A stretch of DNA of 64,000 bases from an uncultured Chloroflexia bacterium (GCA_963752475.1 CAVVYR010000006.1:576001-640000); one strand, 5' to 3'. Numbered from the stretch's first letter, positions 36,523 through 58,266 are shown. Numbers and translations: made by a program. Notes: generated from the sequence alone by a model not told the origin.

Positions 36523-36632
36523 TTCTCCACGGTCTATCCACACTGAGCGCAGATCGGTGGATATCGCCGTTCGCGAAACCCGTGACTTCGTGGACAAGTC
36601 GATTGACCTTGGTGGGGCCTGCTCGGCATAGT
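36523..36632 (+). promoter_or_regulatory. DnaA-box-like cluster plus sigma70-type promoter
   Basis: TTCTCCACG 36523, CTATCCACA 36534, reverse ATATCCACC 36556, reverse TTGTCCACG 36589; TTGACC 36603 and CATAGT 36627 with an 18-nt spacer. Confidence 0.55.
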
Positions 36633-36637
36633 AGGTC

Positions 36638-36805
36638 TTGCCCGGAGGGGCCAGACACGGGGCCAGGGACGCGGCGATCACATCAACGCGAACCGGCCAG
36701 GTCAGGACAGCTGAGATCGCATCAAGGCCGTCCGGCATCCGAAGGTCGCTGCGATCACATCAAGGCGGCATGAGGAACGTGAAGGTCGCTCCGGGCGCTT
36801 CCATG
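36638..36805 (+). ncRNA. candidate small RNA with three hairpins carrying near-identical GMGAUCRCAUCAA loops
   Basis: Closing stem 36640-36652 with 36784-36796. Loops at 36674-86, 36713-25 and 36751-63, each on a different-sequence stem. Own promoter upstream; separate TACCCT -10 for punA downstream. Confidence 0.65.
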
Positions 36806-36854
36806 TGTCCGACGCGGTCTACCCTTGTGCGACCAGCAGCAGGAGCCGACCGCG

Positions 36855-37700
36855 ATGCCCGACCAGATCGTCCCCTTCAGCCAGAGACTCGACGAGCTGG
36901 AGGCGCATGTCCGCCAAGCCTCACCGCTGGTCCCGTCGCTGGGCATGGTCCTCGGCTCGGGACTGGGCGGACTGGCCGATGAGATCATGGACGCGGTCGA
37001 GATCCCCTTCGAGGAGATGCCAGGGTGGCCGGCGCCGTCCGTCGCAGGCCATAGCGGTCGCCTCATCCTCGGCTCCCTTCGCGGCCTGCCCGTAGCCTGC
37101 CTGCGCGGGCGCCTGCATATGTATGAGGGCCTATCCGAGCGGCTGGTCGTGGAGCCGGCGCTGCTCATGGGCCGCCTGGGAGCGCCCATCCTGTTGCTGA
37201 CCAACGCCTCGGGTGGCGTGAACCCGGCCTTCGGTGCCGGCACACTCATGGTCATGCGCGACCACATCAACCTCACCGGTCGAAACCCGCTGATGGGGCC
37301 CAACGACGACGCACTCGGCCCGCGCTTCCCCGACATGTCCGCGGTATGGGATGCCGAGTTGCGCGATCGTCTCCACGCTGCCGGCAGGGCAACGGACGTG
37401 GCCCTGGCCGAAGGCGTCTACCTCGGGCTCACCGGCCCCACCTACGAAACGCCTTCCGAGGTCCGCATGGTCCGAGGTCTGGGAGCCGATGCTGTGGGCA
37501 TGTCGACGGTGATGGAGGCGATGGCCGCGAATTGGGCCGGGATCCGCGTATGCGGTGTCTCACTCGTGACCAACCCCGGCGCCGGCCTCTCACCTACGCC
37601 GCTCACGCATGCGGAGGTCGTGGAGGCAGCCGATGAGGCGGGGCCGCGTCTGGCGCGCGTCATCGGGCGCTTCGCGGAGGACCTGCGCGACGCCCGCTGA
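36855..37700 (+). CDS. punA: purine-nucleoside phosphorylase
   Basis: VLGSGLG, VAGHSGRL, GRLHMYEG, TNASGG, DHINLTG, GPTYETPSE, DAVGMSTV, SLVTN. Confidence 0.95.
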   Translation: MPDQIVPFSQRLDELEAHVRQASPLVPSLGMVLGSGLGGLADEIMDAVEIPFEEMPGWPAPSVAGHSGRLILGSLRGLPVACLRGRLHMYEGLSERLVVEPALLMGRLGAPILLLTNASGGVNPAFGAGTLMVMRDHINLTGRNPLMGPNDDALGPRFPDMSAVWDAELRDRLHAAGRATDVALAEGVYLGLTGPTYETPSEVRMVRGLGADAVGMSTVMEAMAANWAGIRVCGVSLVTNPGAGLSPTPLTHAEVVEAADEAGPRLARVIGRFAEDLRDAR

Positions 37701-37712
37701 GCCGACGAGCGA

Positions 37713-38582
37713 CTAGACCGTGGGGAGGTCTCGACCGGCCTTCTTGGCCGCGGCCTTCTTCTCTGCCCAGGCGCCGAGGACGTTGTCCTTGTGGGGACGG
37801 ATGGGACAGTGCTCGTCGCGGTTCCGGTCCTCATCGCAGTAGCCCATGGGCACGCATTTCGGTGCCAGGAACGAGCCCAGGAACGGGCTCACCCTGAAGA
37901 CCTCGTGGCGGATGAGCTGGAACAGCCGGCGGATCTCCCATTGGGCCATGACGCAAAGTCGCAGGCCGGACATGTGGATGAGCGCGCGCAGGTTCGTCGT
38001 CATGACCAGGTTCGTACGCGTGGCGTTGGGCATCACGAAGCGCGCGTCCTCGCCGGGGATGCCGGCGTCGAGCATGTCTTCGTAGAACCGCAGCGAGCCC
38101 GCCATCTGCTCCTCGAAGCGATCACGGACCTCCTCGTCGGCATCGGTGATGGAGCCCGGCACCATGTAGCTGGGCTCCTTGTACTTGACGTAGCGCTGCG
38201 ACTGCTGGTCGAAGGCCAGGCCGGCGCGATGGCGCACGAGCTGATGGCTGAGCGTTCTCGTCACGCCGCTGATGGCGAAGGTGAAGACGATGTGCTCGAT
38301 CGTGGAGCCGTGGCCGGAGTCGATGACACGACGCACGAGATCCTGCTGCTTCTCGGGTGCGATGCGGCCGTTGGTAGCGCGCTCGAAGATGTCCTGTGGT
38401 TCCAGCTCGCTGTAGCACGTGCGACAGGCGGTGTAGATCAGTGGGACGTAGTAGTCCTCCACGATCTCGCGCGTGGGAAAGATGAGCGAAGCGCGCATGC
38501 CCAGGTCGCGGTTGGCCGGGCTCGGCGGCGTGCGGCTGCGCGGAGCGATCGTGTCCTCGGGCGGCGTGGGGGAGTCAGTCAC
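37713..38582 (-). CDS. thyX: FAD-dependent thymidylate synthase
   Basis: GHGSTIEH, SHQLVRHRAGLAFDQQSQRY, EDARFVMPN, NLRAL, RLC..AQWEIR. Confidence 0.93.
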   Translation of the reverse strand: MTDSPTPPEDTIAPRSRTPPSPANRDLGMRASLIFPTREIVEDYYVPLIYTACRTCYSELEPQDIFERATNGRIAPEKQQDLVRRVIDSGHGSTIEHIVFTFAISGVTRTLSHQLVRHRAGLAFDQQSQRYVKYKEPSYMVPGSITDADEEVRDRFEEQMAGSLRFYEDMLDAGIPGEDARFVMPNATRTNLVMTTNLRALIHMSGLRLCVMAQWEIRRLFQLIRHEVFRVSPFLGSFLAPKCVPMGYCDEDRNRDEHCPIRPHKDNVLGAWAEKKAAAKKAGRDLPTV

Positions 38583-38672
38583 CGCGCGAGTGTAGTCGGC
38601 TCCGGCGACCATCGCACGCGGTCCGTGCTAGCGTCGGTATCCACGACACGACATCGAACCCGAGGTAGTCCC

Positions 38673-39239
38673 ATGGTCCTGCGCAGCCTCTTCGGCGGCG
38701 GCAACAAGCAGTCACAGCAGCCCGAGGCGGTGCCGGCCGCCACGCCCAGCCAGTCCGACACCGAGTCGATCCGTCGGATCGCAGGCGAGCTCGATGCGCT
38801 GCCGCTCGACGAGCGTCGCTACATCGCTGCCTTCGCCTATGTGCTGGCGCGGGCAGCGCACGCTGACTTGGAGATCTCCCGCACGGAGCTCGACTACATG
38901 GAGAAGGCCGTCATCGATGTGGGCAAGATCCGCAGCGCCCAGGCCGTGCTGGTGGTCGAGATGGCCCGCAACATGGCCGAGCTCTATGGCGCTACCGACG
39001 ACTACGTGGTCACGCGTTCGTTCACCGAGAACTCCACGCGGGAGCAGCGCGAGACCCTGCTGCGCACCGCCTTCGCGGTCGGAGCCGCGGACGACACCAT
39101 CACCGCTGCCGAGAGCGCCGAGCTGAACCAGATCGGCAAGGAGCTGGGCTTCCGCTCAGACGAGATCGACTCTATCCGGAATGAGTTCCGCGACCAGCTC
39201 GCAGCCATCCAGGCGATGCGCCGCGCACGAGGCGTGTAG
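38673..39239 (+). CDS. TerB-like (tellurite resistance) family protein
   Basis: LARAAHADLEISRTE and FAVGAADDTITAAESAELNQIGKELG TerB-type repeats. Confidence 0.8.
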   Translation: MVLRSLFGGGNKQSQQPEAVPAATPSQSDTESIRRIAGELDALPLDERRYIAAFAYVLARAAHADLEISRTELDYMEKAVIDVGKIRSAQAVLVVEMARNMAELYGATDDYVVTRSFTENSTREQRETLLRTAFAVGAADDTITAAESAELNQIGKELGFRSDEIDSIRNEFRDQLAAIQAMRRARGV

Positions 39240-39283
39240 GCGCCCCCGCGACCGCACTCGGCCGCCGAACCGCGGCGGCATAA

Positions 39284-41503
<2,220 letters not shown>

Positions 41504-41546
41504 GTTCGATCTCCCCCGGGCCGATGCGCGTGGCATGATGGCCGAG

Positions 41547-42632
41547 ATGGACGCTGAGCAGCCCAGACGTCGTCGAAGCGGTCGAGGCCCTCGGAGCGTG
41601 CGGGTGTATCGCCGTGCGCGACGATGGGCTCGCTTCCGCGAGTCGCTCGTCGAGCTTGGACCCAACTCACGCCAGGTCACGCTGTCGGACGGACGGCTGC
41701 TGGGCTTCGATGACTTCGGCGACCCGGATGGAGTGCCGGTGCTCTTCTTCCACGGGTTCGGCTCCTCGCGCGTCGTGCGCCATCCGGACGATGACATCGC
41801 GGCCGAGCTGGGCACGCGCGTCATCGCTGTCGACCGTCCTGGCATCGGCATCTCGACACGCCAGCCCGGGCGGCGCGTCACCGACTTCCCACGCGATATC
41901 GCCGAACTGCTGGATATCCTGCGCATCGAGCGCTGTGCGGTCGTGGCCTGGTCCGGCGGCGGCCCGTATGCGCTCGCCTGCGCCTGGCAGATGCCCGATC
42001 GCTTCGACGTCATCGGGCTCATCAGTGCACCCGCGCCACTCTCGGGCGTGCCCGGGTCCACGGGCTACACCTGGCCACGGCACCGGGCCATGTCACGCAC
42101 CGCCGACCATGCTCCCTGGGTCATCGCGTTGGCCATGTGGAACTGGTCCCGGCAGCAACGGTCGGATCCACACAAACAGCTCGATGAGGCCGTCAGCGGC
42201 ATGGTCGAAGCGGACCGCGAGATCCTCGGCGACCCGGCGCTCCGTGCGGTGATGATCGCCAACGCCACGGAGATGTACCGGCAGGGGACCGGTGGCATCT
42301 ACGACGAGGCGCTGTGCCTGGCGCGCCCCTTCGGCTTCCCCATCGGCGGCGTGACCGTACCGGTGCGTATCTGGCACGGATCGCTGGACAAGGTCGTGCC
42401 CGTGGGCATGGGCAAGTACCTCGAGCGCAACATCAGCGACGCCGTGGCCACGTTCTATCCCCACGAGGGGCATCACTTCGTCTACGAGCGATGGCGCGAG
42501 ATCCTCGGCGTCATCGTGGCCGAGACGCGAGGACGCTCCCGTGACGCACGGGAGCGTAAGGTCGAGGCGGCCCGGGCTCAGCTCCCGGCCGCGGAGCGAT
42601 ACCAGCCAGCCCCGGATCGCGTCCAGGGCTGA
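41547..42632 (+). CDS. alpha/beta hydrolase
   Basis: LSDGRLLG, FFHGFGSS, DRPGIG, AWSGGG nucleophile, WHGSLD, EGHHF; start is 41535 or 41547. Confidence 0.88.
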   Translation: MDAEQPRRRRSGRGPRSVRVYRRARRWARFRESLVELGPNSRQVTLSDGRLLGFDDFGDPDGVPVLFFHGFGSSRVVRHPDDDIAAELGTRVIAVDRPGIGISTRQPGRRVTDFPRDIAELLDILRIERCAVVAWSGGGPYALACAWQMPDRFDVIGLISAPAPLSGVPGSTGYTWPRHRAMSRTADHAPWVIALAMWNWSRQQRSDPHKQLDEAVSGMVEADREILGDPALRAVMIANATEMYRQGTGGIYDEALCLARPFGFPIGGVTVPVRIWHGSLDKVVPVGMGKYLERNISDAVATFYPHEGHHFVYERWREILGVIVAETRGRSRDARERKVEAARAQLPAAERYQPAPDRVQG

Positions 42633-42641
42633 CCCGAAGCG

Positions 42642-43820
42642 CTAGAGGCGCTTCTCGATGCTGCCACCGCGACCCTTTGGCACGATGGTGTAGTAGGTCT
42701 TGTTGAAGAAGAGCTTGCCGATGTGCCAGAGCCGGCTGGGCTTGGGCGGCTTGGGTGGGTTGTCGTAGTCGAAGCGCAGGAGCGTGCCCTTGCCGTCGCC
42801 GACCTCGAAGAAGCACATGACCTTGCCGGTGTAGATGCTGTCCTTGGGATGGGGCGTGCGGTTCTGGATGCGGGCCGAGACGCGCTCGGCGATCACTGGT
42901 GCCTCGAAGTGGGCCGTCGAGCCGGCCTTCGATAGCGGCAGGTCGGTGGCGTCACCGAGTGCCCACATGTGCTCGCGCCCACCGACGTTGAGCGTCTTGT
43001 GGTCGGTCGGCAGCCAGCCGCCGGGCTCGGGTGCGATACCGCTATCCATCAGCACCTGGGCACCCTTGTGCGGTGGCACCAGCACGAGCAGGTCGTACTC
43101 GAGCTCCTCGCCCTCGAGGCTCAGGACCATCTTGCGCTCGCGATCGATGGCCTCGACGTTGAAGAACGTATGCAGCTCGATGCCCTTGCTCTCGAGCTCG
43201 GGCGTGGCCATCTCGCTCACGGACTCGATGGTGAAGGCACGGGCGATGGGGCTGCAGTAGTGCAGCTCGCTCTTCTCGCGTAGACCGCGGTCACGGAGCT
43301 CGGCCTCGATGAGGAAGGCCACCTCGAGTGGCGCCGGCGGGCACTTGTAGGGCATCGAGGCGATGCCCACCACGATCTTGCCGCCGGTGAAGCTGTCGAG
43401 CGCCTGACGCAGTCGCGCGGCGGCTTCCTCGCTGTAGAAGTGATGGGCCTCGTCCTCGAAGTGCTCGATGGCCTCGGGCAGGATGCGTGAGCCAGTGCTC
43501 AGGATGAGCTCGTCGTAGTCGAGCTTCGTTCCATCGGTCAGCTCGACCGTGCTCGCCTCCTCATCGATCCTGGTGACCTCGCCGATGACGAGGTCGACGC
43601 GCTTGTCCAGGAGCTGTCGCTCGGGCTTGCGCAAGGACTTGGGGTCCTCGTTGCCCATGGCGATGTACATGAAGCCGGGCTGGTAGACGTGCTCACCCTT
43701 CTCGTCGACGACCGTGACCTTGGCCTCGCCGGCGTCGATCTGCTTCTTGATCTTGCGGCTGATGAGGTTGGCGACGAGCGTGCCGCCGACGCCGCCGCCT
43801 AGGACGAGGACGTTCTGCAT
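42642..43820 (-). CDS. sqr: sulfide:quinone oxidoreductase (type III-like FAD oxidoreductase)
   Basis: VLGGGVGG, HVYQPG, YKCPPAPLE, ALGDAT, SKAGSTAH, YTGKVMCF; AGGAG RBS; adjacent TusA/DsrE genes. Confidence 0.85.
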   Translation of the reverse strand: MQNVLVLGGGVGGTLVANLISRKIKKQIDAGEAKVTVVDEKGEHVYQPGFMYIAMGNEDPKSLRKPERQLLDKRVDLVIGEVTRIDEEASTVELTDGTKLDYDELILSTGSRILPEAIEHFEDEAHHFYSEEAAARLRQALDSFTGGKIVVGIASMPYKCPPAPLEVAFLIEAELRDRGLREKSELHYCSPIARAFTIESVSEMATPELESKGIELHTFFNVEAIDRERKMVLSLEGEELEYDLLVLVPPHKGAQVLMDSGIAPEPGGWLPTDHKTLNVGGREHMWALGDATDLPLSKAGSTAHFEAPVIAERVSARIQNRTPHPKDSIYTGKVMCFFEVGDGKGTLLRFDYDNPPKPPKPSRLWHIGKLFFNKTYYTIVPKGRGGSIEKRL

Positions 43821-43844
43821 GTCAGTCACTCCTGGATATGGGGA

Positions 43845-44093
43845 CTACTTGAGCTTCTCGACGACGATCTCATCGTAGCCCTCGTGATCGAAGACTCCGA
43901 CGAGCCGGTGGCCGGCCTTGTCGACCCAGGCAGGGATGTCGGTCTTGGAGCCGTTGTCGGTCGAGATGACGGCAAGGACATCACCGACCTGGCCCTCACG
44001 GATGCCACGGATGAGCTCCATCAGGGGGCCGGGGCAGAAGCTGCCGCGAGCATCGATGGTCTTGGTCGGGTTGGTTTCGAGTTCGAGGGTCAT
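43845..44093 (-). CDS. tusA: TusA family sulfurtransferase
   Basis: IDARGSFCPGPL, STDNGSKTDIPAW. Confidence 0.9.
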   Translation of the reverse strand: MTLELETNPTKTIDARGSFCPGPLMELIRGIREGQVGDVLAVISTDNGSKTDIPAWVDKAGHRLVGVFDHEGYDEIVVEKLK

Positions 44094-44154
44094 GGGTGCT
44101 TCTCCTGGAGGATTCGCACGGGACCGGGGGGAAGGCCCCGTGCGCGATCGGGGG

Positions 44155-44742
44155 CTAGATGAAAAGGGAGCCAGTATGGTCTTCGGTCATCATCTCGAGG
44201 ACGGTGGCGGCGCCCACGGGCTCGCCGAGGCCGTCGATCATGTCCTCGCGCTTGAGGCCGAACATGTCCATCGTCATCTGGCAGGGCAGGAACTCGACGC
44301 CCATCAGCTGACAGGCTTCCAGCAGCTCCTGCGGGGAGGCGACGTTGTACTGCTCGCTGAGCTTGCCGATCATCCACGGACCCATGCCCATGAAGTTCAT
44401 CTTCGACATCTTCATGTGGCTGATGCCCGGGCGCTGCATGAACGAGAGCATCTTCTGCATCGTGCCCTCACCGGTGATGCGCTTGGAGTCCTTGACGAAG
44501 GGGAGGAGGCCCCAGAAGGTCAGGAACACCTGCGCCTTGTAGCCACTGGCGGCCGCGACGCTACTCATGATGAGGGTCGGCAGGACCTTGTCGAACTCAC
44601 CGCTCCAGTTGATGATCACCAACTGACGCTGCGAGCCGGGTACGCTGCTCTCGGGCTGTGCGGCGACCGCGATGGCCTCGGTCAGCTGGGCTTCGGCGCC
44701 CTCATCGGTGGCGGCCTCCGGGGCCGCGGTCTCGGTAGTCAT
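44155..44742 (-). CDS. DsrE/DsrF/DrsH-like (DsrE2-type) sulfur relay protein
   Basis: WSGEFDK, FLTFWGL, MSKMNFMGMG, LPCQMTMDMFG. Confidence 0.88.
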   Translation of the reverse strand: MTTETAAPEAATDEGAEAQLTEAIAVAAQPESSVPGSQRQLVIINWSGEFDKVLPTLIMSSVAAASGYKAQVFLTFWGLLPFVKDSKRITGEGTMQKMLSFMQRPGISHMKMSKMNFMGMGPWMIGKLSEQYNVASPQELLEACQLMGVEFLPCQMTMDMFGLKREDMIDGLGEPVGAATVLEMMTEDHTGSLFI

Positions 44743-44771
44743 GGGTGTCCCTTTCCCTGCGTGCTCGCCGC

Positions 44772-45002
44772 TTAGGCGCGCTTGATGACGAAGCGGTAGA
44801 CGCCGTCGGCCTCGGTCTGCTCGAGGATGGCGTTGCCGGTGGAGCGGGTCCATGCGGCGAAGTCCTTGACCGACCCGGGGTCGGTGGCGAGGACCTCGAT
44901 GAGCTCGCCGGCCGGGACCGTCTTCACCGCCTGCGCGGTCTTGACGATCGGCATCGGGCAGGACAGGCCTTTGGCATCGACGGTGGTATGGACGTCACTC
45001 AT
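44772..45002 (-). CDS. tusA: TusA family sulfurtransferase
   Basis: VDAKGLSCPMPIVKT, ATDPGSVKDFAAW. Confidence 0.92.
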   Translation of the reverse strand: MSDVHTTVDAKGLSCPMPIVKTAQAVKTVPAGELIEVLATDPGSVKDFAAWTRSTGNAILEQTEADGVYRFVIKRA

Positions 45003-45052
45003 GACGGGCTCCTTGGTGTGTCGTGTCAGCGTTGTGTGAAGAGGATCGCGGG

Positions 45053-49096: not shown

Positions 49097-49816
49097 CTAG
49101 AAGCTCGACCCCGGCTTGTGCTTGGCCACGTACGCGGCCGCCTGCGCACGCCGCTGGAGGTTCAGCTTGGAGAGGATCGACGAGACGTAGTTCTTGACCG
49201 TCTTGTCCGAGAGGTAGACCTCGGCCGCGATCTCCTTGTTCGTCTTGCCCTCCGCTACCAGCAGCAGGATCTTCTGCTCCTGGGCCGTCAGCTGCGCGAA
49301 CTCGTCGGTGTAGGCGCTGGTGGCGATGCGGCGCACGCGCTCCAGGACCTTCTCGGTCACTGCCGGATCGAGCAGTGACTCGCCTCGGCCCACGGCCTCG
49401 AGGGCGTTGACGAGATCGCGCGCACGCACCTGCTTGAGCAGATAGCCGCTGGCACCCGCGACGATGGCCGAGAGCACGGCTTCCTCGTCGGGGTAGCTGG
49501 TGAGCATGACCACGCGCACATCGGGGTACTCGGCGCGGATGTCGCGGCAGGCCTCGATGCCCGACCCGTCCGGCAGCCGCACGTCCATGATCACGAGGTC
49601 CGGCGCGAAGCGCTCGACGGCGCTGAGGGCTTCCTCGACCGTGCCTGCCTCAGCCACGACCTGGAAGGCATCGCGGCGGTTGAGCAACGCCGCCAGACCC
49701 TGCCGCACGACCTCGTGGTCGTCGACCACGAGCAGGCGCAGCTTCTTGGCCGGAGCGGCCTTGTCATCCGCGCCCGGGCTCTTGGGGATGCCCTGGGACT
49801 CGGTCGGGTCGGTCAT
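49097..49816 (-). CDS. NarL/DevR(DosR)-like response regulator
   Basis: VVDDHEVVRQG, MDVRLPDGSG, GASGYLLK, LTAQE...EGKTNKEIA...KTVKNYVSSILSKL. Confidence 0.93.
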   Translation of the reverse strand: MTDPTESQGIPKSPGADDKAAPAKKLRLLVVDDHEVVRQGLAALLNRRDAFQVVAEAGTVEEALSAVERFAPDLVIMDVRLPDGSGIEACRDIRAEYPDVRVVMLTSYPDEEAVLSAIVAGASGYLLKQVRARDLVNALEAVGRGESLLDPAVTEKVLERVRRIATSAYTDEFAQLTAQEQKILLLVAEGKTNKEIAAEVYLSDKTVKNYVSSILSKLNLQRRAQAAAYVAKHKPGSSF

Positions 49817-51063
49817 TGGCTGGACTCCTTGACTCGGCCGCGCTCTCCCCGCGGCATCTCGAAGACGACCCGGGTACCGTCGTCGTCGCTGTGGATCGTG
49901 AGCGAGCCGCCAAGTGAGTCGGCTCGGGCGTGCATGTTGGTGAGGCCGTGGTGGCCAGGACGCTGTCCTTCGCCGGTATCGAAGCCGCGACCGTCGTCGA
50001 TGATAGACAGCCGCAGCCATTCGCGACGGTCCTCGACATTGACCACCACCTTGGAAGCCTCCGCGTGGCGGGCCACGTTGCTCATCGCTTCACGCGTGAG
50101 CTGCACCAGCTGGAGGGTCTCGTCCGGATCGAGTGGCACGTCCGGATCGCTCGACAGCTCGACTTCGATGAGCGTGCTGCGCTCGAACTCGTCGGTCAGG
50201 GCAGCCAGGCCCGAGAGCAGGTCGACGGCCGTGCGGGCGTCAGGGTCAAGGCCCATGATGAAGTCGCGGATCTCCTGGATGGTGCCGTGGATCTGGTCGA
50301 TGGCATGGTCGATGCGCTCGGCCGCCTGGTCGCGATCGCTGGCCATCAGCTCTTCGGTGTCCTCGAGGGCGAGGCTGACCGCGTAGAGCGATTGGATGGA
50401 GCCGTCGTGCAGGTCCTGCGCGATCCGCTCGCGCTCCTGCAGCACCGCCAGCTGGCGCAGCTCCTCGTGCATGCGTGCGTTGTGGATGGCCAGGCCGGCG
50501 TGGCGGGCGAAGGACTCGACCAGGCGCTCGTCGTCCTCGCTGAAGGGCTGATCATCGAGGCGGTCGCTGAGATAGAGGTTGCCGATGGCCCGGCCCTCGA
50601 CCTTGACCGGCACGCTCAGGAGCGTCGTCATCGGTGGATGTTCGGCCGGGAAGCCGGCGCTGCGTGGATCGGCTGCGATGTCGTCACTGCGGACGGTGTC
50701 GTTGTCGCGAAGGCTGATACCCAGCAGCCCCTTGCCCCGAGGTGGATGAGCAACGGCTGCGCGGCGCTGCTCGCTCAGGCCGCTGGTGATGAATCGCTCC
50801 ATCGAGCCGTGGTCGTCGGGGATCCCCAGCGCCGCGTAGCGGGTGCCGACGAGCGGGCGCACGCTGTCGACGATGATCTGCAGCACGCGCTCGAGGCCCA
50901 GTTCCTGCGAGATGGCCACGGTGGCCGCGTCAAGCGCCTCGAGGCGGCGGCGGGCCTCGTTGGCCGCGGCGGCCCAGTCCTCGGCCTCTCGGATCGCTGC
51001 GGCAAACTGTTCTGTGGTCGGGGTGTCCCCGGCGCTGCTCGCGGTGGCAGTAGCTCGTTCCAT
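49813..51063 (-). CDS. GAF-domain histidine kinase (DevS/DosT-like)
   Basis: GAF with GFPAEHPPM, GNLYL, ERERIAQDLHDG (HisKA_3), EAMSNVARHA, DDGRGF, GLTNM. Confidence 0.92.
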   Translation of the reverse strand: MERATATASSAGDTPTTEQFAAAIREAEDWAAAANEARRRLEALDAATVAISQELGLERVLQIIVDSVRPLVGTRYAALGIPDDHGSMERFITSGLSEQRRAAVAHPPRGKGLLGISLRDNDTVRSDDIAADPRSAGFPAEHPPMTTLLSVPVKVEGRAIGNLYLSDRLDDQPFSEDDERLVESFARHAGLAIHNARMHEELRQLAVLQERERIAQDLHDGSIQSLYAVSLALEDTEELMASDRDQAAERIDHAIDQIHGTIQEIRDFIMGLDPDARTAVDLLSGLAALTDEFERSTLIEVELSSDPDVPLDPDETLQLVQLTREAMSNVARHAEASKVVVNVEDRREWLRLSIIDDGRGFDTGEGQRPGHHGLTNMHARADSLGGSLTIHSDDDGTRVVFEMPRGERGRVKESSQ

Positions 51064-51086
51064 CAGGCCCAATCTACCAGTCTGAC

Positions 51087-51122
51087 GTGACCAATGGCCC
51101 CCTCCGCGTGTCCTGACGGCCC
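51087..51122. promoter_or_regulatory. tandem DosR-box-like sites between divergent kinase and multicopper oxidase genes
   Basis: GTGAC-CAAT-GGCCC (51087) and TGTCC-TGAC-GGCCC (51109), 22 bp apart. Confidence 0.45.
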
Positions 51123-51157
51123 TGAAATCGCTCAGCGACCCGGTTACTCTTTCCGCC

Positions 51158-52489
51158 ATGGACGCGAAGGCTCAATCCCCCCTGTCCGACGAAGTCAACC
51201 CCACCGAAGACGCGATCGATGGTGCCATCGCGTCAGTGGCCGCCGAGGAGGCGGCGGCCGACCCCGACCGGATGGTGCCGGTCTCGCTCGGTGTAACCAG
51301 CCGGCGCGGCTTCCTGCGCGGTGCGCTCGCCGTGGCCGGCGGTACCGCGGCAGCAGCGGCCCTCGCGGCCTGCGCGCCGGCCAGCGGTAGCGCCTGGTCC
51401 TATGCACCGCTACGCACCCTGACGGCCGCAGCCGAGGGCAGTGAGAGCGCTCCGGCGGAGGGCGAGGGCGAGGCCGCGACAGAGACGACCGAACCCATGA
51501 CCGAGGAGCAGGCAGGATCCAGCGAGCCGATGCCCGCGGGCTGGACGGAGCACGACATGGCCGCGCGCGAGAAGGTGCGCCGTTTCGTGGGCAACCTGTC
51601 CGCCACGTTGGGCATGGCCGAGATCATCGGCGAGCCGGAGTACGACCCGGAGTTCACGACCGTCGATCATGGCAACCAGCCGCTCGAGCCGACCATCGAT
51701 GGAGACTGGAAGCAGTTCGACCTGACGGTCGACCAGATGGACTGGCAGATCGACGCCATGAAGGAGCCGGTCAAGGCACTCGGCTACAACGCCATGTGGC
51801 CCGGTCCGGCGCTGCGCGTGACCGAGGGTGACAAGGTCCGTATCAACGTCACCAACAACCTCGACGAGACCACCGGCGTGCACATGCACGGCATCGAGTT
51901 CGACAACTGGTACATGGACGGCATCCCGTTCCTGACCCAGTCGCCGATCATCCCGGGTGACACGTTCAGCTACGAATTCGTGGCCACGCCACACGGCTCA
52001 CACATGTACCACTCCCACCACAACGCTACCGACCAAGTCGGTCGCGGCCTGCTGGGCGCGCTCATCGTCGACCCCAAGGACGCCGCCGAGCGGTACGACC
52101 AGAAGTACGGCGTGACGCAGGAGTACATCTTCATCCACAACGATTCGCTGGGTGGTTTCACCATCAATGGCAAGGGCTTCCCGGCCACCGTGCCGATCAT
52201 CGCCAAGAAGGGCGAGCGCGTGCTCATCCGCTACCAGAACGAGGGCGTGATGATGCACCCGTGGCATACGCATGGCTTCCGCCAGCATGTGGTCGCTCGC
52301 GACGGTGCCCAACTGGGCAGCGCCAGCTTCTATTGCGACACACTTGGCGTGAACCCGGGAGAGCGCTTCGACACCATCGTCGAGTGCGATCGCGTGGGTG
52401 TGTGGGCGCTCCACTGCCACATCCTTCCGCACGTCGAAGGCCTCGATGGAATGTTCGGCATGGTCACGGCGCTCGTCGTCACCGAATAG
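51158..52489 (+). CDS. Tat-exported lipoprotein, two-domain multicopper oxidase
   Basis: TSRRGFL Tat motif, LAAC lipobox; HMHG, MYHSHH, HPWHTHG, HCHILPH...M copper motifs. Confidence 0.9.
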   Translation: MDAKAQSPLSDEVNPTEDAIDGAIASVAAEEAAADPDRMVPVSLGVTSRRGFLRGALAVAGGTAAAAALAACAPASGSAWSYAPLRTLTAAAEGSESAPAEGEGEAATETTEPMTEEQAGSSEPMPAGWTEHDMAAREKVRRFVGNLSATLGMAEIIGEPEYDPEFTTVDHGNQPLEPTIDGDWKQFDLTVDQMDWQIDAMKEPVKALGYNAMWPGPALRVTEGDKVRINVTNNLDETTGVHMHGIEFDNWYMDGIPFLTQSPIIPGDTFSYEFVATPHGSHMYHSHHNATDQVGRGLLGALIVDPKDAAERYDQKYGVTQEYIFIHNDSLGGFTINGKGFPATVPIIAKKGERVLIRYQNEGVMMHPWHTHGFRQHVVARDGAQLGSASFYCDTLGVNPGERFDTIVECDRVGVWALHCHILPHVEGLDGMFGMVTALVVTE

Positions 52490-52578
52490 GCAGGCGGCCC
52501 TCGCAGGGCAGGCCTGTGTGACCCCAGAAAGGGTCCATGCGTCCCTACGCGTAACCCTCGGTGGGGCCCGAGGCTCAT

Positions 52579-53031
52579 ATGACGATGCGTCCGATCCGTA
52601 CGATCCTGCTTGCCACCGACCTCACCGCGGCTTCGCGGGAGGCGACCGACCGTGCCATCGACTTGGCTGCCCGACTCGAGGCGCGTCTGCTGATCGTGAA
52701 CGTGCTCGAGAAGCGTCGTCTCTCTGGTGGCGGCTCGCATGAGCGTGTGGACCAGGCCCGAAGCGAGCGTGAGTCCCTGCTGGTCAAGGTCGTGCGCGGA
52801 GCGCGAGATGCCGGTGTCACCGCCGAGTTCCTGGTGTGGGATGGTGAACCTGGCGACTCCATCGCCGCCGCCGCGGAGGCCGAGCATGCCGATCTGGTGG
52901 TGGTCGGGACGCGTGGCCGCAGCGGTGCGGAGCGGATGTTCCTCGGCTCGGTCTCCGATCATGTGGTGCGGCATGCCGAGTGTCCGGTGCTCGTGGTGCG
53001 ACCGTCGAAGCGACCCGCCGAGGTCGCCTGA
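52579..53031 (+). CDS. universal stress protein
   Basis: ILLATDL, GEPGDSI, DLVVVGTRGRSG..RMFLGSVSDHVVRHAECPVLVVR. Confidence 0.94.
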   Translation: MTMRPIRTILLATDLTAASREATDRAIDLAARLEARLLIVNVLEKRRLSGGGSHERVDQARSERESLLVKVVRGARDAGVTAEFLVWDGEPGDSIAAAAEAEHADLVVVGTRGRSGAERMFLGSVSDHVVRHAECPVLVVRPSKRPAEVA

Positions 53032-53094
53032 GGGTCCCTCGGAACGGGCCCTGGCTCACAGACGGATCCAGCTGAGGAGCGCTAGCGTGTGCCC

Positions 53095-54000
53095 ATGCGT
53101 GCGCTGACCGTGGCCCTGGCCCTGCTGCTCGCGACCGTGCCCGTGTCGGCCGCGGACGAGGCCGGGTCGACGGGCGAGCTCGATGTCGTCCTGGACTCGA
53201 CCCAGCACTGGGTCGGCACGAATGACGTCCTTCTGAGCGTCTACGACGCCACCACCGGGGAGTCGCTCGCCGATGCCGCCAGCCCGCTCCGGCTGCGGTT
53301 CACCGCACCGGGCGGCGGGGTCATCAACAGTCAGCCGGCGATCGAGAAGTACGCGACCTACGGGCGTCGCCTCTACCGGGCGCGTGTCACGTTCGAGGAG
53401 CTCGGTGACTGGTCGGTCGCGGTGGAAGCGACCATCGAAGGGGAGGAGTACCACGGTGATGGGCGTCTGGAGGTGTGGCCGGACATGGGCACGCCCGCCC
53501 TCGATGCGCTCGTGCCCGGTGGAGACACCCCGACGATGCGTGATGCCCATAGCCTCATGCACCACATCAGTTCCGACCCCGAGCCATTGACCGCGTTCTA
53601 CACCTGGACGCTCGACGACGCCCTCGCGCAGCATCAGCCGACGGTGTTCGTGCTTGATTCCTACGCCTTCCGCCCCAACGCTGCCTGCGGTGGTGCGCTG
53701 GGCATCCTTCACGAGGTCTTCATCGACTACCCCGGTCTGACCGTCATCCACGCCGAGCCATGGCATATGGCCATGGGACGCGACGGACACATGCTCGAGC
53801 TCGACCCGCCCGGGGGGCCGGCCGTGCTCACCGACTACGCCGAGGCCTGGGGTATCGAGGAGCCGCCGTGGGTCTTCGTCATCGACCGGGACGGGCGCCT
53901 GCAAGCGAAGTTCACCGGCATCATCGGTAGCGACGAATTGCGGGCGGCGATCACCTCGGTGACGCCCTGGCGCCCGGTGGGCGGTGGAGGCTCGACCTAG
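53095..54000 (+). CDS. secreted protein with C-terminal thioredoxin-like domain
   Basis: Signal peptide; beta-rich N-domain; AACGG, IHAEPW, WGIEEPPWVFVIDRDG. Confidence 0.7.
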   Translation: MRALTVALALLLATVPVSAADEAGSTGELDVVLDSTQHWVGTNDVLLSVYDATTGESLADAASPLRLRFTAPGGGVINSQPAIEKYATYGRRLYRARVTFEELGDWSVAVEATIEGEEYHGDGRLEVWPDMGTPALDALVPGGDTPTMRDAHSLMHHISSDPEPLTAFYTWTLDDALAQHQPTVFVLDSYAFRPNAACGGALGILHEVFIDYPGLTVIHAEPWHMAMGRDGHMLELDPPGGPAVLTDYAEAWGIEEPPWVFVIDRDGRLQAKFTGIIGSDELRAAITSVTPWRPVGGGGST

Positions 54001-55277
54001 GGGCTCTCGCCCGGTTCCACCCGCAGCTCCGCCTCTGCTTCCGCGATGCGGACCACGATGCCGTCGCGCAACTGGTCCAATCCGGCGTTGACGGCCTTGG
54101 CCGCGGTGCCGATGGTGGTCAGCTTCATCTTGAGCCCGCGCACCGCGTCGAGCTCGGCCCGGACTCGCTCGAGGGCCTCGTGGACCGCGTCCGCATCGAC
54201 GTCACCCTCGGTGTCACGAGTAACGGCCATGGCCAGTAGGCGAGCCAGGCGCACGGCGGCATCGAGCGTCGCGGGCTCGGGGTCGTCAGGGTCGATGGCG
54301 CAGTAGACGTCACCCATGCGCACATCGAAGGGCGCGATCCCGGCGGGTGCGTGTGCGGTGCTGAAGACCACGAGCCCGACGGCGGCATCGCGGTTGCGCT
54401 TGGCCTCCGAGATCTCGTCGCGCATGGCGCGACCGCTGATGGCACGGTCCTTGGCCTCGACCACGATGCGCACCGCGGAGCCCCGCGTGGTGGCCGGATC
54501 GACCGTCAGGACGAAATCACCCTTCTTGGAGCGCAGGATGTTGCCAGCCTCGTCCGAGGTGCGCTCGACGAGGTGGTCCGTGCCACGGACCGTATCCGAG
54601 AGCATGCCCTCGAGCAGGTCCTCGAAGTCGGCACCCTTCGCGGCTGACCTGGAGCGCTCGTCGGCACGTGCCGTGGCCGCCGCCTCGATGGCCGCGAGGC
54701 GCTCGTTGAGGGCCTCGAAGCCCTTGCTTACCTCGCTGCGGAACTGGTGCAGCGGCGAGCCCATGCGCGTGGGGTCGAGCAACTGCGCCAGGCGCGAAGC
54801 GTCGCCGTCGAAGTAGTTGCCCAGTAGTACGCGCATACGGCCGATGGCCGAGTCGCGCCGCTCTTCATCGAAGAGCTCGCGGGTGAACGAGCGCAGCTGT
54901 CCACGGTCGCCTAGGAAGGTCTCCAGGGTGCGCGGCAGGCGTCCGTCGCCATCGGCGAAGTTCTGGCGCAGGACCTCGTCGACCTGGGCCGCGACGCGTT
55001 CGTTGAGCGTCGCCGTCTGGCGCACCATGGACTCGAACTCACGGCGCACGACATCGACGTCGAGCGAGGCGCCGGCGTCCTGCAGGGCCAGCAGCCCGAT
55101 GCGCAGCGCCCGCACGATGAGCTCCGGGCGGTCGTCGGCCGGACGGTCCGCCACGAACGTGGCCAGGCCCTGGTCGGCGAGGCTGAGCGACTCGATGGTG
55201 ATGTGCTCGCCACTGACCGAGACGTGGCTGCGGCTGACGGGAACGTCAGCGAGCGAGACGATGTTCGTGGCTTCCAT
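53997..55277 (-). CDS. coiled-coil PD-(D/E)XK protein (RmuC-like)
   Basis: Helical/coiled N-terminus, KGADFE, KKGDFV...IVVEAKD nuclease-like motif. Confidence 0.7.
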   Translation of the reverse strand: MEATNIVSLADVPVSRSHVSVSGEHITIESLSLADQGLATFVADRPADDRPELIVRALRIGLLALQDAGASLDVDVVRREFESMVRQTATLNERVAAQVDEVLRQNFADGDGRLPRTLETFLGDRGQLRSFTRELFDEERRDSAIGRMRVLLGNYFDGDASRLAQLLDPTRMGSPLHQFRSEVSKGFEALNERLAAIEAAATARADERSRSAAKGADFEDLLEGMLSDTVRGTDHLVERTSDEAGNILRSKKGDFVLTVDPATTRGSAVRIVVEAKDRAISGRAMRDEISEAKRNRDAAVGLVVFSTAHAPAGIAPFDVRMGDVYCAIDPDDPEPATLDAAVRLARLLAMAVTRDTEGDVDADAVHEALERVRAELDAVRGLKMKLTTIGTAAKAVNAGLDQLRDGIVVRIAEAEAELRVEPGESP

Positions 55278-55339
55278 GCCCCCACCGTGTCGACCGTCTG
55301 TGCCAGCTTGCGTGTCACGCGCTCGACTACCCTGTTCCG

Positions 55340-55870
55340 ATGCGCATCCTCATCGCCCACGGCGCCTCCGGCGGGGCCGCCTCCATGCAGCGCCACGTCG
55401 ACGGACTCGAGCAGCGCGGTATCAGGGCCACCGCCATCGACCTGCCGCTGCGCAAGGCGGAGAAGGCCGTGCCGGTCTATCGGGAGCACGTCGATGCGGC
55501 CGCCGAGCCACCGGGCGGGCTGGTCATCAGCGGGCAGTCGTACGGCGGCCGAGTGGCCAGCCTGCTGGCGGCCGACTCGGAGCCCTCGTGTGCCGCGCTC
55601 GTCTGCTTCAGCTATCCGCTCCATCGGCCCGGCCATCCCGACTGGGACGTCCGCAGCAGCCACTGGCCTGACATCGACGTGCCGGTGCTTCTGCTCTCGG
55701 GTGAGTCGGATCCCTTCGCCAAGCTCGACCTGCTCCGGCGCGCGATCGGAGAGCGCCTGCCGACCGCGCGGCTCATCACGTACCCCAAGGTGGGTCACAG
55801 CCTCAAGCCGGTGCTCGATGACGTGCTGGACCAGGCCGCCGCCTTCGTCGGGGAGCTCGAGGCGGCCTAG
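55340..55870 (+). CDS. small alpha/beta hydrolase
   Basis: IAHGASG, GQSYGGR, SYPLHRPG, SGESDPF, VGHSL. Confidence 0.88.
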   Translation: MRILIAHGASGGAASMQRHVDGLEQRGIRATAIDLPLRKAEKAVPVYREHVDAAAEPPGGLVISGQSYGGRVASLLAADSEPSCAALVCFSYPLHRPGHPDWDVRSSHWPDIDVPVLLLSGESDPFAKLDLLRRAIGERLPTARLITYPKVGHSLKPVLDDVLDQAAAFVGELEAA

Positions 55871-56670
55871 TTCGAACCTCGCGGGATCGATCGCTGCGAG
55901 CGTGACGGCACCGTCAGCGAGCCGCCGTTGGGCAGCACGCGTACGGTCGTGTCCGGTGCCATCCGTCGCACGAGCTGTGCGAACTGGTGGGGCGGGTCGA
56001 TCCGCGTCGACGGACGCATCCAGCTCAAGCCCACCGGATGGAGTGTGCCCCAGTGGATGGGCACGGCGATCCGTGGCTTGATGACCGCGGTGGCACGAGC
56101 CGCTCCCATGGGGTCGAGGTGTTCGTGCGGCTTGGCCGTCGGGCCCCAGCCCCATACCGGTAGCAGGGCCAGGTCAAGTCCGATGTCGAACTCGGCCATG
56201 GCGTCGAAGAAGGCGGTGTCACCGGCGAAGTAGACCGACTGTGAGCCGCGGATGATGAAGCCAAGGCAGAGGTCGGTGCCACCGACCGGCGGGCCGAAGC
56301 CCTTGTGCTCGGCATGGACGGCCTCGATGCGCACGCCGTCGATGGTCTTGGCATCGCCGGGCTCGAGTTCCGTGACGTCACGGAAGCCGTGCGACTCGAA
56401 CTCGGTGGCCATGCCGGTGCGGGCGATGAGCGGCACGTCGAAGCCCATCAGCTTGAGCGAGCCGTAGTCGAGATGATCCCAGTGTGAGTGCGAGATGAGT
56501 ACCGCATCGATGTCCGCATAGAGCTCGGGCGCCGGCGGGCCCGACGTGCGCGTGAGCGGGCCCACGCGCTCGCGCAAGATGGGGTCGGTGAGGACGCGCA
56601 CGCCGTCGATCTCGATGAGGATGGTGGCGTGGCCGAGGAAGGTCACGCGTGCGTTGCTCTTGTCGCTCAC
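55867..56670 (-). CDS. metallo-beta-lactamase fold hydrolase
   Basis: [32 protein letters not shown]. Confidence 0.9.
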
Positions 56671-56721
56671 GGGCCAAGTATCACCGAACGGCCGCGGTGG
56701 CATGAGCGGTACCATCGCAAC

Positions 56722-57831
56722 ATGGTCACGACTGAGACGATTCGCAGCGCACCCAAGGTGCTGCTGCACGATCATCTCGACGGCGGGCTGCGTCCAGCGT
56801 CCGTCATCGAGCTGGCCCACGAGACCGGCTACACCGGTCTCCCCACCGAGGACCCTGAGGAGCTCAGGGTCTGGTTCCGCTCAGGCGCGGACCGTGGTTC
56901 GCTGGAGCTCTATCTGGAGGGTTTCACCCACACCGTGGGCGTGATGCAGACGCCCGACACGATCGCTCGTGTGGCGTCGGAGTGTGCCCAGGACCTGGCC
57001 GCGGACGGCATCGTCTATGCCGAGGTCCGCTACGCGCCCGAGCTCTCCACCCAGGGTGGCCTGACCCTCGACGAGGTCATGAAGGCCTGGCTATCCGGCT
57101 TCGAGGGCGGCATGCGAGAGGCCGAAGCCGCTGGCAACCCGATCGTCATCCGGGCCATCGTCACGGCCATGCGTCAGTTCGCGCGCTCGGTGGAGATCGC
57201 CGAGCTCTCGGTCCGCTTCCGCGATCAGGGCGTGGTCGGCTTCGACATCGCCGGGCCCGAGGATGGCTTCCCGCCCAGTCGACACCTGGATGCCTTCCAG
57301 CTCATCCACCGCGAGAACTTCCACATCACCATCCACGCCGGCGAGGCCTTCGGGCTGCCCTCGATCTGGGAGGCGCTGCAGTGGTGTGGCGCCGAGCGCC
57401 TGGGTCACGGGGTGCGCATCGTGGACGACATCACGGTCACGCCTGACGGCGATATCAGCATGGGCCGGCTCGCGCAGTTCGTGCGCGACAACCGCATCCC
57501 GCTCGAGCTGTGCCCGACGTCCAACGTGCACACGGGCGCCGTCGATTCGATCGCGGACCATCCGATCGACCTGCTGCGACGACTGCGCTATCGCGTCACC
57601 GTCAACACCGACAACCGACTCATGAGCGATGTCACGCTGAGCGATGAGTTCGCGGCGCTCAGTGAGGCCTTCGACATCGGTCTTGACGAGATCCAGTGGC
57701 TCTCGACGAACGCGATGAAGTCCTCCTTCCTGGCCTTCGACGAGCGCTTGCGTCTGATCAACGGCGTCATCAAGCCGGGGTACGAGCGATTGAAGGCGGA
57801 TCTGCAGGCTCGCTCACCGCGCCTGGTCTAG
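56722..57831 (+). CDS. add: adenosine deaminase
   Basis: [45 protein letters not shown]. Confidence 0.95.
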
Positions 57832-57977
57832 GCCGCGAGGTCCAGTACGACGGGCTCGTCTGCCCAATCGATGCTGGTGCCGCAGACAGCACAGCTGAAC
57901 GAAGCTTCTGGCTCCTCCGGCAGCGGGAAGGGCAGGTGGGCCGTTTCCTCGCACCAGGGGCAATCGACGACGACCAT
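57828..57977 (-). CDS. 49-aa zinc-ribbon protein ending in LAA
   Basis: GGAGG/GAGG RBS; CPWC...CAVC; C-terminus VVLDLAA. Confidence 0.75.
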
Positions 57978-58059
57978 CCTCGTGTCCTCCGTGGTGGGTA
58001 GCTGCCGCCGACAGTGGAGGACCGCTGTGCCAACTAGCGTGGCACGATGTGCGCCCAGA

Positions 58060-58152
58060 CACGAAGTAGCCCGGCGAGACCACCTCCGCGGCACCCAAGT
58101 GACTGGCGGACCAGCCTCTCCGGTTCCGTTTCGATGACCCCTCCGGGCTGCT
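58060..58152 (-). ncRNA. candidate structured small RNA or leader (long imperfect hairpin)
   Basis: Minus strand AGCCCGG/CCGGGCU, GGGGUCAUC/GGUGGUCUC (G-U pairs only on this strand), apical GGCUGG-UCCG-CCAGUC; promoter immediately upstream. Confidence 0.55.
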
Positions 58153-58156
58153 ATCT

Positions 58157-58266
58157 ACGATAGGGACGCAGTCGGGGCACCACAAGCGGCTTGTCCACGA
58201 ACTCGGAAGATTCCCTCGCGGCTCTTCCACGATCGATCCACATCGTTCGTCCACGATCGATCGACA
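58157..58266 (-). promoter_or_regulatory. sigma70-type promoter plus DnaA-box-like cluster
   Basis: TTGTGG (58185-80), 17-nt spacer, TATCGT (58162-57); plus-strand TTGTCCACG 58191, TCTTCCACG 58223, CGATCCACA 58234, TCGTCCACG 58247. Confidence 0.55.

Follow-up and report, generated by a model that had tools for sequence, protein, structure and literature searches.

Sibling families of small RNAs (sRNAs) under a single regulator are known from the Rsm/Csr RNAs (GacA/UvrY), the Qrr RNAs (LuxO), and the streptococcal csRNAs (CiaR). In these families, several paralogues of 70-280 nt per genome share the same upstream site architecture and have their own terminators, and the Rsm/Csr sponges vary in the number of hairpin modules that carry the same loop. 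The replication initiator DnaA has its own canonical binding site, the DnaA box TTATCCACA. DnaA-regulated promoters, and box clusters outside the replication origin (oriC), have been described for dnaA autoregulation, nrdAB, clusters in B. subtilis, and gidAB-parAB of P. aeruginosa (PMC8203912, PMC13438810, PMC4447404, PMC11317965); in the excerpts of these reports considered here, several close 9-mers resembling the canonical box lie beside a sigma-70 promoter, pairs or arrays are preferred, and some of the genes serve nucleotide supply. Here we describe two loci, A and B, in a 64,000-nt stretch of DNA from an uncultured Chloroflexia bacterium (GCA_963752475.1 CAVVYR010000006.1:576001-640000; hereafter the window, whose coordinates are used throughout). 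At both loci, an array of DnaA-box-like sites and a promoter stand in front of a short structured RNA whose two ends pair with each other. The genome to which the window belongs (G000) is 4.25 Mb, with 68% G+C and a completeness of 88.8%.

These loci resemble the sibling sRNA families in paralogue number, RNA size, upstream architecture, and the presence of a putative terminator, and the number of same-loop modules at locus A likewise varies from one to three among relatives. They differ in that the RNAs have no GGA loops, the terminator-like stem is closed by the RNA 5′ end, the interiors differ between members, and the candidate regulator is the replication initiator. Compared with the DnaA-regulated promoters in the cited excerpts, the products here are small structured RNAs and the same array recurs at every member; binding by DnaA itself is putative. 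Our preferred reading, in which we have moderate confidence, is that G000 has three members, A and B among them, of a family of short structured RNAs that is specific to the lineage; each is transcribed independently, and where a gene follows, the RNA also serves as an attenuating leader.

We began with the architecture of the two loci. Locus A reads on the plus strand, where the motif TTCGTGGACAAGTCGATTGACC begins at 36587 and the start of the RNA stem, GCCCGGAGGGG, at 36640. Locus B reads on the minus strand, with its motif beginning at 58201 and GCCCGGAGGGG at 58148, so that 53 nt lie between motif start and stem in both cases. The proximal box of locus A (A4, TTGTCCACG, 36589-36597, minus strand, GTGGA at 36590) abuts the -35 element, and relatives keep it as TTCGTGGA(C/T)AA(C/G). 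A second box in the same orientation (A3, ATATCCACC, 36556-36564, minus strand, GTGGA at 36557) lies 33 bp upstream of it. Further up are two distal boxes on the plus strand, inverted relative to the proximal one: A1 (TTCTCCACG, 36523-36531) and A2 (CTATCCACA, 36534-36542), whose TCCAC core is 11 bp from that of A1; the pair is kept as TT(G/A)TCCACC-N4-GTCCACA in the 20 aligned locus-A sequences. The sigma-70-type promoter, seen both in a promoter scan (one site called, against 0.0 expected in shuffles) and in the alignment, comprises a -35 element TTGACC at 36603-36608, an 18-nt spacer, and a -10 element CATAGT at 36627-36632.

At locus B, four co-oriented boxes occupy 58191-58254 on the minus strand, within the divergent spacer shared with an S41 peptidase gene. 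Their TCCAC cores, in plus-strand coordinates, stand at 58194 (the proximal box, again TTGTCCACG, at 58191-58199), 58226, 58237, and 58250, and the second same-orientation box lies 32 bp upstream of the proximal one. This is the sole instance in G000 of a co-oriented three-box layout. The promoter (58157-58185, minus strand) has a weak -35 element, TTGTGG at 58185-58180, and a -10 element, TATCGT at 58162-58157. A consensus promoter scan did not call it; the alignment of relatives keeps CTTGCC...TATCGT. Direct reading confirmed every string quoted for both loci in the initial annotation, together with the common 53-nt spacing and the second upstream box.

The co-occurrence of this architecture at loci A and B is far beyond chance. 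The 17-mer TCCACG(G/A)TC(T/G)ATCCACA is found once at each locus and nowhere else in the 4.25-Mb genome. It had been presented as an element common to both, which holds for its presence and not for its orientation: since the plus strand carries it in both cases, it runs against the transcript at A and along with it at B. A genome-wide search for CGTGGACAAG-N4-TTG, as the initial annotation had proposed, likewise returned only A and B. The stem start GCCCGGAGGGG occurs eight times in the genome and has the box-promoter context only at these two copies. TCCAC itself is present at 2.41 per kb in G000, and both loci are among the 16 windows of 100 bp that contain at least four. A genome scan for the closing stem gave five candidates, of which the two in coding sequence have no boxes. 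The three non-coding ones, A, B, and a further locus on contig C4, all have boxes upstream.

This third member (G000:C4:34950-35035, plus strand) was found by R1, a covariance model built from 42 single-hairpin RNAs of the locus-A kind. It belongs to what we term type A2 below and reads ACCCGGAGGGGCC...GGUUCCUUCGGGU; the distal boxes are at -95 and -84, the proximal one is degenerate, and a conserved membrane-protein gene with no Pfam family follows the RNA. Searching the genome for paralogues of RNA B by BLAST yielded only chance matches in coding sequence. Among near relatives sampled by BLAST (24 genomes of the same genus and 16 of a small-genome sister family), locus A was present in 19 of the 24 same-genus genomes and locus B in 14, and neither was found in the 16 sister-family genomes. 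Where both were found in a relative, they lay about 20 kb apart on one contig. The proposal that A and B are non-coding RNA genes of common design, with the same box promoter, was thus borne out by their conservation.

We then examined the predicted RNAs. RNA A (157 nt, 36640-36796, plus strand) is closed by a stem between 36640-36652 and 36784-36796, followed by a U-rich tail to about 36808, and has a predicted fold of -78.8 kcal/mol (z -2.71). Inside are three hairpin modules with loops GAUCACAUCAA (36676-36686), GAUCGCAUCAA (36715-36725), and GAUCACAUCAA (36753-36763); relatives have one, two, or three such hairpins. Over the whole family, 117 distinct modules show a 5-bp stem under the loop G(A/C)GAU(C/U/G)(A/G)C(A/C)UCAA. 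Pairing was observed in 75.9% of cells, against 53.1% in shuffles, and double-sided changes in 167 cells, against 81.8 +/- 7.8 in shuffles, with none of 500 shuffles reaching 167. The covariation score was 0.55, compared with at most 0.19 when partner columns were slid. RNA B (80 nt, 58069-58148, minus strand) is a rod-like hairpin closed by GCCCGG/CCGGGC, with a tail to about 58057 and a predicted fold of -54.7 kcal/mol (z -2.30). Its consensus structure has 27 pairs in 16 sequences, with little double-sided covariation (one pair), and its apical part, CCGGAGAGGCUGGUCCGCCAGUCAC, is invariant; R2, a covariance model of this B type, matches RNA B at an E-value of 4.4e-17. The string GGAGAGGCU in RNA B prompted us to consider a PyrR-binding site, which we rejected: the hairpin is symmetric, and searching G000 with the PyrR family RF00515 gave no match up to E 10.

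The closing stem, here called the clamp, is what A and B have in common as RNAs. The first 12-13 nt (GCCCGGAGGGGCC) pair with the last 12-13 nt in a GC-rich helix, which is followed by a short U-rich tail. A multi-genome alignment of 20 locus-A and 16 locus-B sequences, all fetched by BLAST, retains the 5′ start GCCCGGAGG(G/A)G together with the boxes and the -35 and -10 elements, while the spacers vary. We found the clamp in all 84 distinct RNAs of a larger set, which had been selected for such 3′ closure. The tail common to all members reads N-Y-U-U-Y-Y-N-U-G, positions 3 and 4 being U in 75 and 67 of the 84. The 3′ strand of the clamp varies (GGUCGCUCCGGGC, GGUUCCUUCGGGC, GGUCUCUCCGGGC, and others), and GC/GU swaps preserve the pairing. 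At position 1, G-C is replaced in compensatory fashion by A-U in the C4 member and in locus L274, and by U-A in family f4 of the class, where the clamp reads (G)UCCCG(G/A)AGG(G/A)GC with GGUUCCUUCGGG(A/G). Mimicry of a transfer RNA (tRNA) by the clamp was also tried and rejected, as no tRNA has the acceptor stem GCCCGGA and the RNAs have neither CCA nor a T arm. The acceptor stem of tRNA-Leu(UAA) (G000:C7:509477-509565), CCCGGAG/CUCCGGG, is identical to the clamp core; given the missing CCA end and T arm, the likeness is probably due to chance.

Because the 12-13-nt ends are inverted repeats around a variable interior, the two loci could in principle have come to resemble each other through transposition, as terminal inverted repeats of a miniature inverted-repeat transposable element (MITE) or a repetitive extragenic palindrome (REP). 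We regard this as very improbable. A high-copy repeat, which the initial annotation had named as an outcome that would undo its proposal, is not what we see: there are three copies in 4.25 Mb and one to five per genome elsewhere, and the same syntenic sites are occupied across the genus and beyond. The promoter lies outside the repeat and yet is conserved with it. Moreover, the swaps in the 3′ arm keep the pairing of the RNA and not that of the DNA.

Next, we determined how widely the family is distributed. We refer to the window's own family as f1, to the small-genome family as f2, and to the other families of the class as f3, f4 (likewise a sister family), and f5. The pattern GTGGAYAA-N36-48-GCCCGGAGGRG was run on 301 genomes of the order, one of them unpublished. 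It was present in 139 of these, including 138 of 258 in f1 (26 of 39 genera) and none of 42 in f2, at one to four copies per genome; the reversed pattern, used as a control, had no match in any genome of the order tested. Model R1, run on 151 genomes across the class (four unpublished ones included), matched 111, at one to five loci per genome: 49 of 49 in f1, 55 of 55 in f4, 6 of 38 in f3, 0 of 7 in f2, and the single f5 genome not at all. A scan with the pattern over one genome per species returned at least 122 loci. The true ones belong mostly to metagenome-assembled genomes assigned to Chloroflexia, Chloroflexota, or Candidatus Limnocylindrales, and the remaining loci are chance matches in coding sequence of unrelated bacteria. 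From these assignments, the lineage bearing the RNA appears to be a Limnocylindrales-type Chloroflexota group and not an actinobacterial one. The comparison with Streptomyces boxes made in the initial annotation is therefore no more than an analogy, the host not being an actinobacterium. Both loci of the system proposed there are real, and they belong to a larger family spread across the class, with locus A additionally a leader of punA.

The members could then be sorted according to their interiors. We extracted 131 candidates and dropped as chance those with neither a type motif nor a GCCCGGAGGGGC start. Type A (n = 37) has one to three GAUCRCAUCAA hairpins and mostly stands upstream of punA; class-wide, these are covarying hairpins with the loop GAGAUCRCAUCAA. 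Type A2 (n = 30) reads CUAACGG...GAUCRCAUCAA...CCCACG and mostly precedes one conserved membrane-protein gene without a Pfam family. Type A3 (n = 13) combines two GAUCRCAUCAA-type hairpins with GGGAGCAAUCCC, and the three loci checked have no co-oriented gene downstream. Type B (n = 9), defined by CCGGAGAGGCUGGUCCGCCAGUCAC, is a genus-level variant and in this window has a small Cys-rich open reading frame (ORF) downstream. We assign it to the genus level because, among the 151 class genomes, only G000 gave a strong match to the B model; four weak matches probably reflect the common closing stem. The smaller groups are type C (n = 6, GGUGCUUGCAUC loops; one, L167, follows hflX), type D (n = 5, ~275 nt, following hflX), type E (n = 2, 82 nt, ~1.3 kb downstream of D), type F (n = 3, 83-84 nt; L171 and L173 follow hflX, and F-type RNAs precede an Rce1-like gene), and six unclassified RNAs. 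At the D-type loci L296 and L297, a GT2 glycosyltransferase gene comes after the RNA, and the E-type RNA about 1.3 kb on.

Promoter and closing stem are constant across the types, and it is the interior that differs. The syntenic site downstream of hflX illustrates this: in other genera (L167, L170, L171, L173, L296, and L297) it holds a type C, D, or F RNA or an unclassified 84-nt interior, with promoter and clamp kept. A constant end-to-end stem, a modular variable interior, and a few paralogues per genome (one to five here) are also features of Y RNAs and YrlA, and the 5′ strand of the clamp is constrained far beyond what pairing needs. The RNAs might then be Y-RNA-like scaffolds, in which one protein sits on the constant stem, variable modules recruit partners, and the box promoter is incidental. 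We consider this improbable, as the TROVE (Ro) domain PF05731 has no match in G000 (a genome that is 88.8% complete), neither Y_RNA nor any other Rfam family matches, and the stem differs in sequence and shape, with nothing of the bulged helix of Y RNAs.

No described family accounted for these RNAs. At gathering score, Rfam 15 had no match in the whole window. With E raised to 10, locus A gave two noise matches, both on the opposite strand (E 0.42 and 7.5), and locus B none; at E up to 0.01, there were no matches for 20 loci covering all types. A full-text search for GCCCGGAGGGG gave, among the matches listed, only eukaryotic papers (on the human TERT promoter and others), and four other motifs had no match. 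Literature searches that paired DnaA boxes with sRNAs or non-coding RNAs, or that used the taxon names, showed no such RNA family, as judged from listings and the beginnings of abstracts. Based on Rfam 15 and these searches, the RNA family is undescribed. The comparison with Rfam and the modelling of relatives, both anticipated in the initial annotation, have left no Rfam family and one class-wide covariance model for type A.

We also asked whether the members are genes in their own right or leaders of the genes that follow. At locus A, punA (purine-nucleoside phosphorylase, 36855-37700, plus strand; NCBIfam NF006054, E 2.4e-97; Pfam PNP_UDP_1) begins 58 nt past the closing stem, and the order of RNA then punA recurs in relatives; many genera of f1 have punA after an A-type RNA. 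The punA ribosome-binding site of two species (L017 and L020) starts about 12 nt past the clamp, and punA must there be transcribed by read-through. A 5′ leader whose conserved-loop hairpins precede a terminator-like stem and then a nucleotide-salvage gene brings to mind guanidine-II (mini-ykkC) and PyrR attenuators. On such a reading, the elements would be primarily cis-regulatory leaders whose interior hairpins sense a metabolite or regulator and set read-through of the clamp terminator into punA, membrane-protein, and CAAX-protease genes, gene-less members being relics. The placement ahead of punA in many f1 genera speaks for it, as does the lack of space for a separate punA promoter in some species. 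Most of the 30 A2 RNAs, and the C4 member too, precede a single membrane-protein gene, and F-type RNAs the Rce1-like gene. One loop motif is common to two different genes, in a regulon-like manner.

The situation in f4 is a different one. Of 18 A-type loci there, 11 have a convergent ORF that starts no more than 300 nt away, and of 16 ORFs searched against Pfam, 13 were verified as convergent genes, against one verified co-oriented gene (an ECF-type sigma factor); two further co-oriented ORFs had no match. The 13 convergent genes encode uracil phosphoribosyltransferase (UPRTase, five), adenylate cyclase (two), PMT_2-type glycosyltransferase (two), Lhr, a glyoxalase, AAA_33, and OLD-TOPRIM proteins. 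As most f4 members face a convergent gene, we take them to be stand-alone RNA genes. At three type A3 loci, the synteny moaA-RDD-[RNA]-thyX is kept while punA is gone, and no co-oriented gene is present. Consistent placement in a 5′ untranslated region, the mark of a leader or riboswitch, thus holds for punA and one membrane-protein gene in f1 and fails in f4 and at the A3 loci. At the level of the family, members have their own promoter and do not depend on a downstream gene; locus A itself does have punA on the same strand. We therefore conclude that members were ancestrally, and are most often, small RNA genes in their own right, the role as punA leader being an added or parallel use.

The leader reading is further weakened by the RNAs themselves. 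A single hairpin with a 13-nt loop, in one to three copies, would be unusual as a small-molecule aptamer; no Rfam riboswitch matches; RF00515 is absent from the genome at E up to 10; and many members have no gene in cis at all, unlike mini-ykkC and PyrR attenuators. In addition, the interior differs between genera at the hflX locus and the clamp stays. Leaders as the primary function therefore seem to us possible, though rather unlikely. As a separate observation, the A-type RNA at five f4 loci (L278, L280, L281, L291, and L292) is directed towards the 3′ end of a convergent upp, encoding uracil phosphoribosyltransferase. The window is arranged likewise: add is convergent to locus B, and thyX to locus A with its punA. 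Transcripts reading through would be antisense to genes of nucleotide salvage.

Evidence of transcription came from RNA-library data. In run X12, a salt-marsh metatranscriptome, a 130-nt contig with a word depth of 115 has no mismatches over 36662-36770, and sequencing adapter is joined to it at 36648 in front and at 36770 behind. Depth over the bins of punA and the upstream gene is 0-0.8. The contig is what one would expect of an abundant short RNA derived from within the predicted transcript (36640-36796), and at least RNA A, one of the two RNAs whose absence from transcript data would have counted against the initial proposal, is transcribed. It is also consistent with the leader reading, since terminated leaders are typically abundant in RNA sequencing. 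Of the three RNA runs that share words with the region, the other two (X10 and X20) have no cover over the RNA A bin; being contigs, they are uninformative either way.

We then turned to the boxes and the factor that might bind them. In 60 of 61 family promoters with full flanks, one or more additional boxes stand no further than 80 bp from the proximal box. Co-oriented boxes lie at -31 to -33 in 44 of the 61 and at -41 to -44 in 29, and inverted boxes at -53 in 13 and at -64 in 14, the offsets being whole helical turns. The proximal site matches TTATCCACA, which we take to be the canonical DnaA consensus, at 7 or 8 of 9 positions. In 30 family genomes from 30 genera, the 700 nt downstream of dnaA contain 233 TCCAC boxes, an average of 7.8 at each locus where a density of 2.41 per kb would predict about 1.7. 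The first of these read (C/G)TT(A/G/T)TCCAC(A/C/G)G, for example GTTGTCCACCG, the same form as the boxes of the RNA promoters (proximal TTGTCCACG; others CTATCCACA, ATATCCACC, and CGATCCACA). The RNA promoters thus carry box clusters like those of the lineage's dnaA region, and the boxes at A and B, called DnaA-like on first inspection, do resemble DnaA boxes and match those adjoining dnaA in the same family. Because of this match, control of the RNA promoters by DnaA is plausible, though unproven.

The TCCAC boxes may instead be bound by another factor, such as a response regulator of the OmpR/PhoB type, whose members bind direct repeats in phase beside the -35, or a dedicated lineage-specific regulator. 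Spacing in multiples of 11 bp, a proximal site abutting a weak -35, and a small regulon (three promoters in G000) are typical of a dedicated activator, and in G000 few strong boxes are found between dnaA (G000:C8:422917-424305) and dnaN. The agreement with the DnaA consensus, the match down to the flanks with the boxes that come first after dnaA in 30 genera, and the presence of sites in both orientations at locus A, which DnaA tolerates and tandem-repeat regulators usually do not, count in the other direction, as do further four-box clusters that lie, as read by eye, upstream of dnaB-like and parA-like genes. We see another such factor as a serious possibility; between DnaA and any other binder of the boxes, the sequence comparisons leave the balance about even.

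The further clusters deserve a description of their own. Two non-coding clusters of four strong TT(A/G)TCCAC boxes lie at G000:C8:343437-343484 and C8:487314-487389, the first upstream of a dnaB-like gene (by eye). On the same contig, two copies of a parS-like palindrome, TGTTCCACGTGGAACA (C8:398039-398055 and 398149-398165), stand upstream of a gene read by eye as parA-like (...ANQKGGVGKT), and a perfect TTGTCCACA box is found near them at 398226.

The members of the RNA gene family are laid out as follows. A phased array of two to four sites of the form TT(A/G)TCCAC(A/G/C) has one site directly upstream of the -35 and the others about three, four, five, or six helical turns further up; the sigma-70-type promoter comes next, and then the clamp-closed RNA. 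Under our preferred reading, a single DNA-binding factor would serve all members through the array, with DnaA as the best candidate. It would probably be an activator, because a site adjoins the -35 and the -35 at B is weak. The clamp most likely acts as an intrinsic terminator, releasing mainly a discrete RNA of 75-280 nt, and most likely has a second job in protecting both RNA ends. The conserved, type-specific interior loops would be where a protein or RNA partner engages. A co-oriented gene lying within a few tens of nucleotides, as punA does after RNA A, would be reached by read-through only, and there the element would work as an attenuating leader.

Several observations weigh against this picture. 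A strict terminator scan called the 3′ end of neither locus A nor locus B. The U-tract has only 2-4 U and the stem encloses an interior of 50-250 nt, which is why the strict rule calls nothing. In the pattern-derived sets, the near-fixed 5′ strand is partly imposed by the search pattern; the sets free of this bias are the 36 sequences of the BLAST-fetched loci and the model-derived sets, and real changes in the stem, such as those at position 1, do show up in unbiased sets. Evidence for RNA A comes down to one assembled contig from one study, and contigs give neither ends nor strand. A search of the genome for targets in trans of the A loop found its complement, TTGATG(C/T)GATC, eight times, three of these being the loci themselves and the rest lying in coding sequence. 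The neighbouring genes of members have no single theme. The link to nucleotide metabolism drawn in the initial annotation stands for punA/thyX and add, and other members lie beside hflX, glycosyltransferase, CAAX-protease, cyclase, and helicase genes. As to DnaA, the dnaA-dnaN spacer has only five weak boxes in G000 and just one in another genome of the genus, and it is therefore other genera that carry the comparison with origin boxes; with the spacer so poor in boxes, the origin in this genus may lie elsewhere. GC skew along contig C8 was too noisy for placing it. Finally, a strong box on its own shows no preference for non-coding DNA: the non-coding share of the genome was scored at 27%, and 26 of 91 such boxes lie in it. 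It is the box clusters, not single boxes, that are informative.

A bolder version of the family reading goes further. DnaA would directly drive a regulon made up of sRNAs only, and the clamp scaffold, with its interchangeable loop modules, would broadcast the state of replication initiation post-transcriptionally to nucleotide-salvage and envelope genes, at punA by attenuation. The clamp would then be a portable chassis in which interiors are swapped, as at hflX, and new RNA regulators would arise in this way. We offer this as a speculation, and consider it unlikely in its full form.

The surroundings of the two loci complete the description. Upstream of locus A are moaA and an RDD-family gene, and behind punA is the convergent thyX. 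RNA B is divergent from the S41 C-terminal processing peptidase gene (58315-59529, plus strand; Pfam Peptidase_S41, E 3e-40; TIGR00225). Downstream of RNA B on the minus strand, an ORF at 57828-57977 encodes a 49-aa Cys-rich, zinc-ribbon-like peptide (CPWC...CAVC) with no Pfam or NCBIfam family at cut-off. By eye, most of the 16 aligned sequences preserve the peptide, with codons that differ synonymously. Its ORF ends at about the end of the convergent add (adenosine deaminase, 56488-57831, plus strand; Pfam A_deaminase, E 5.2e-101). About 90 nt separate RNA B from this ORF and include a palindrome seen in the alignment, GTGCCA-N7-TGGCAC with a central UAG (58027-58045, minus strand), which reads GTGACA in half of the aligned relatives. 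As this variant would put an A-G mismatch into an RNA helix, the palindrome is more likely an operator-like DNA site for a dimeric DNA-binding protein than an RNA hairpin.

Collectively, these data describe an RNA family found almost universally in two families of a class of soil and sediment Chloroflexota that is both abundant and uncultured. In practical terms, it provides annotation with a model for one to five RNA genes per genome in the class and accounts for the transcription of punA here. The combination of a constant promoter and clamp with a swappable interior is unusual and offers a natural example of modular RNA evolution. If the boxes are indeed DnaA sites, the family would constitute a regulon of small RNAs under the replication initiator, tying the status of initiation to control at the level of RNA.

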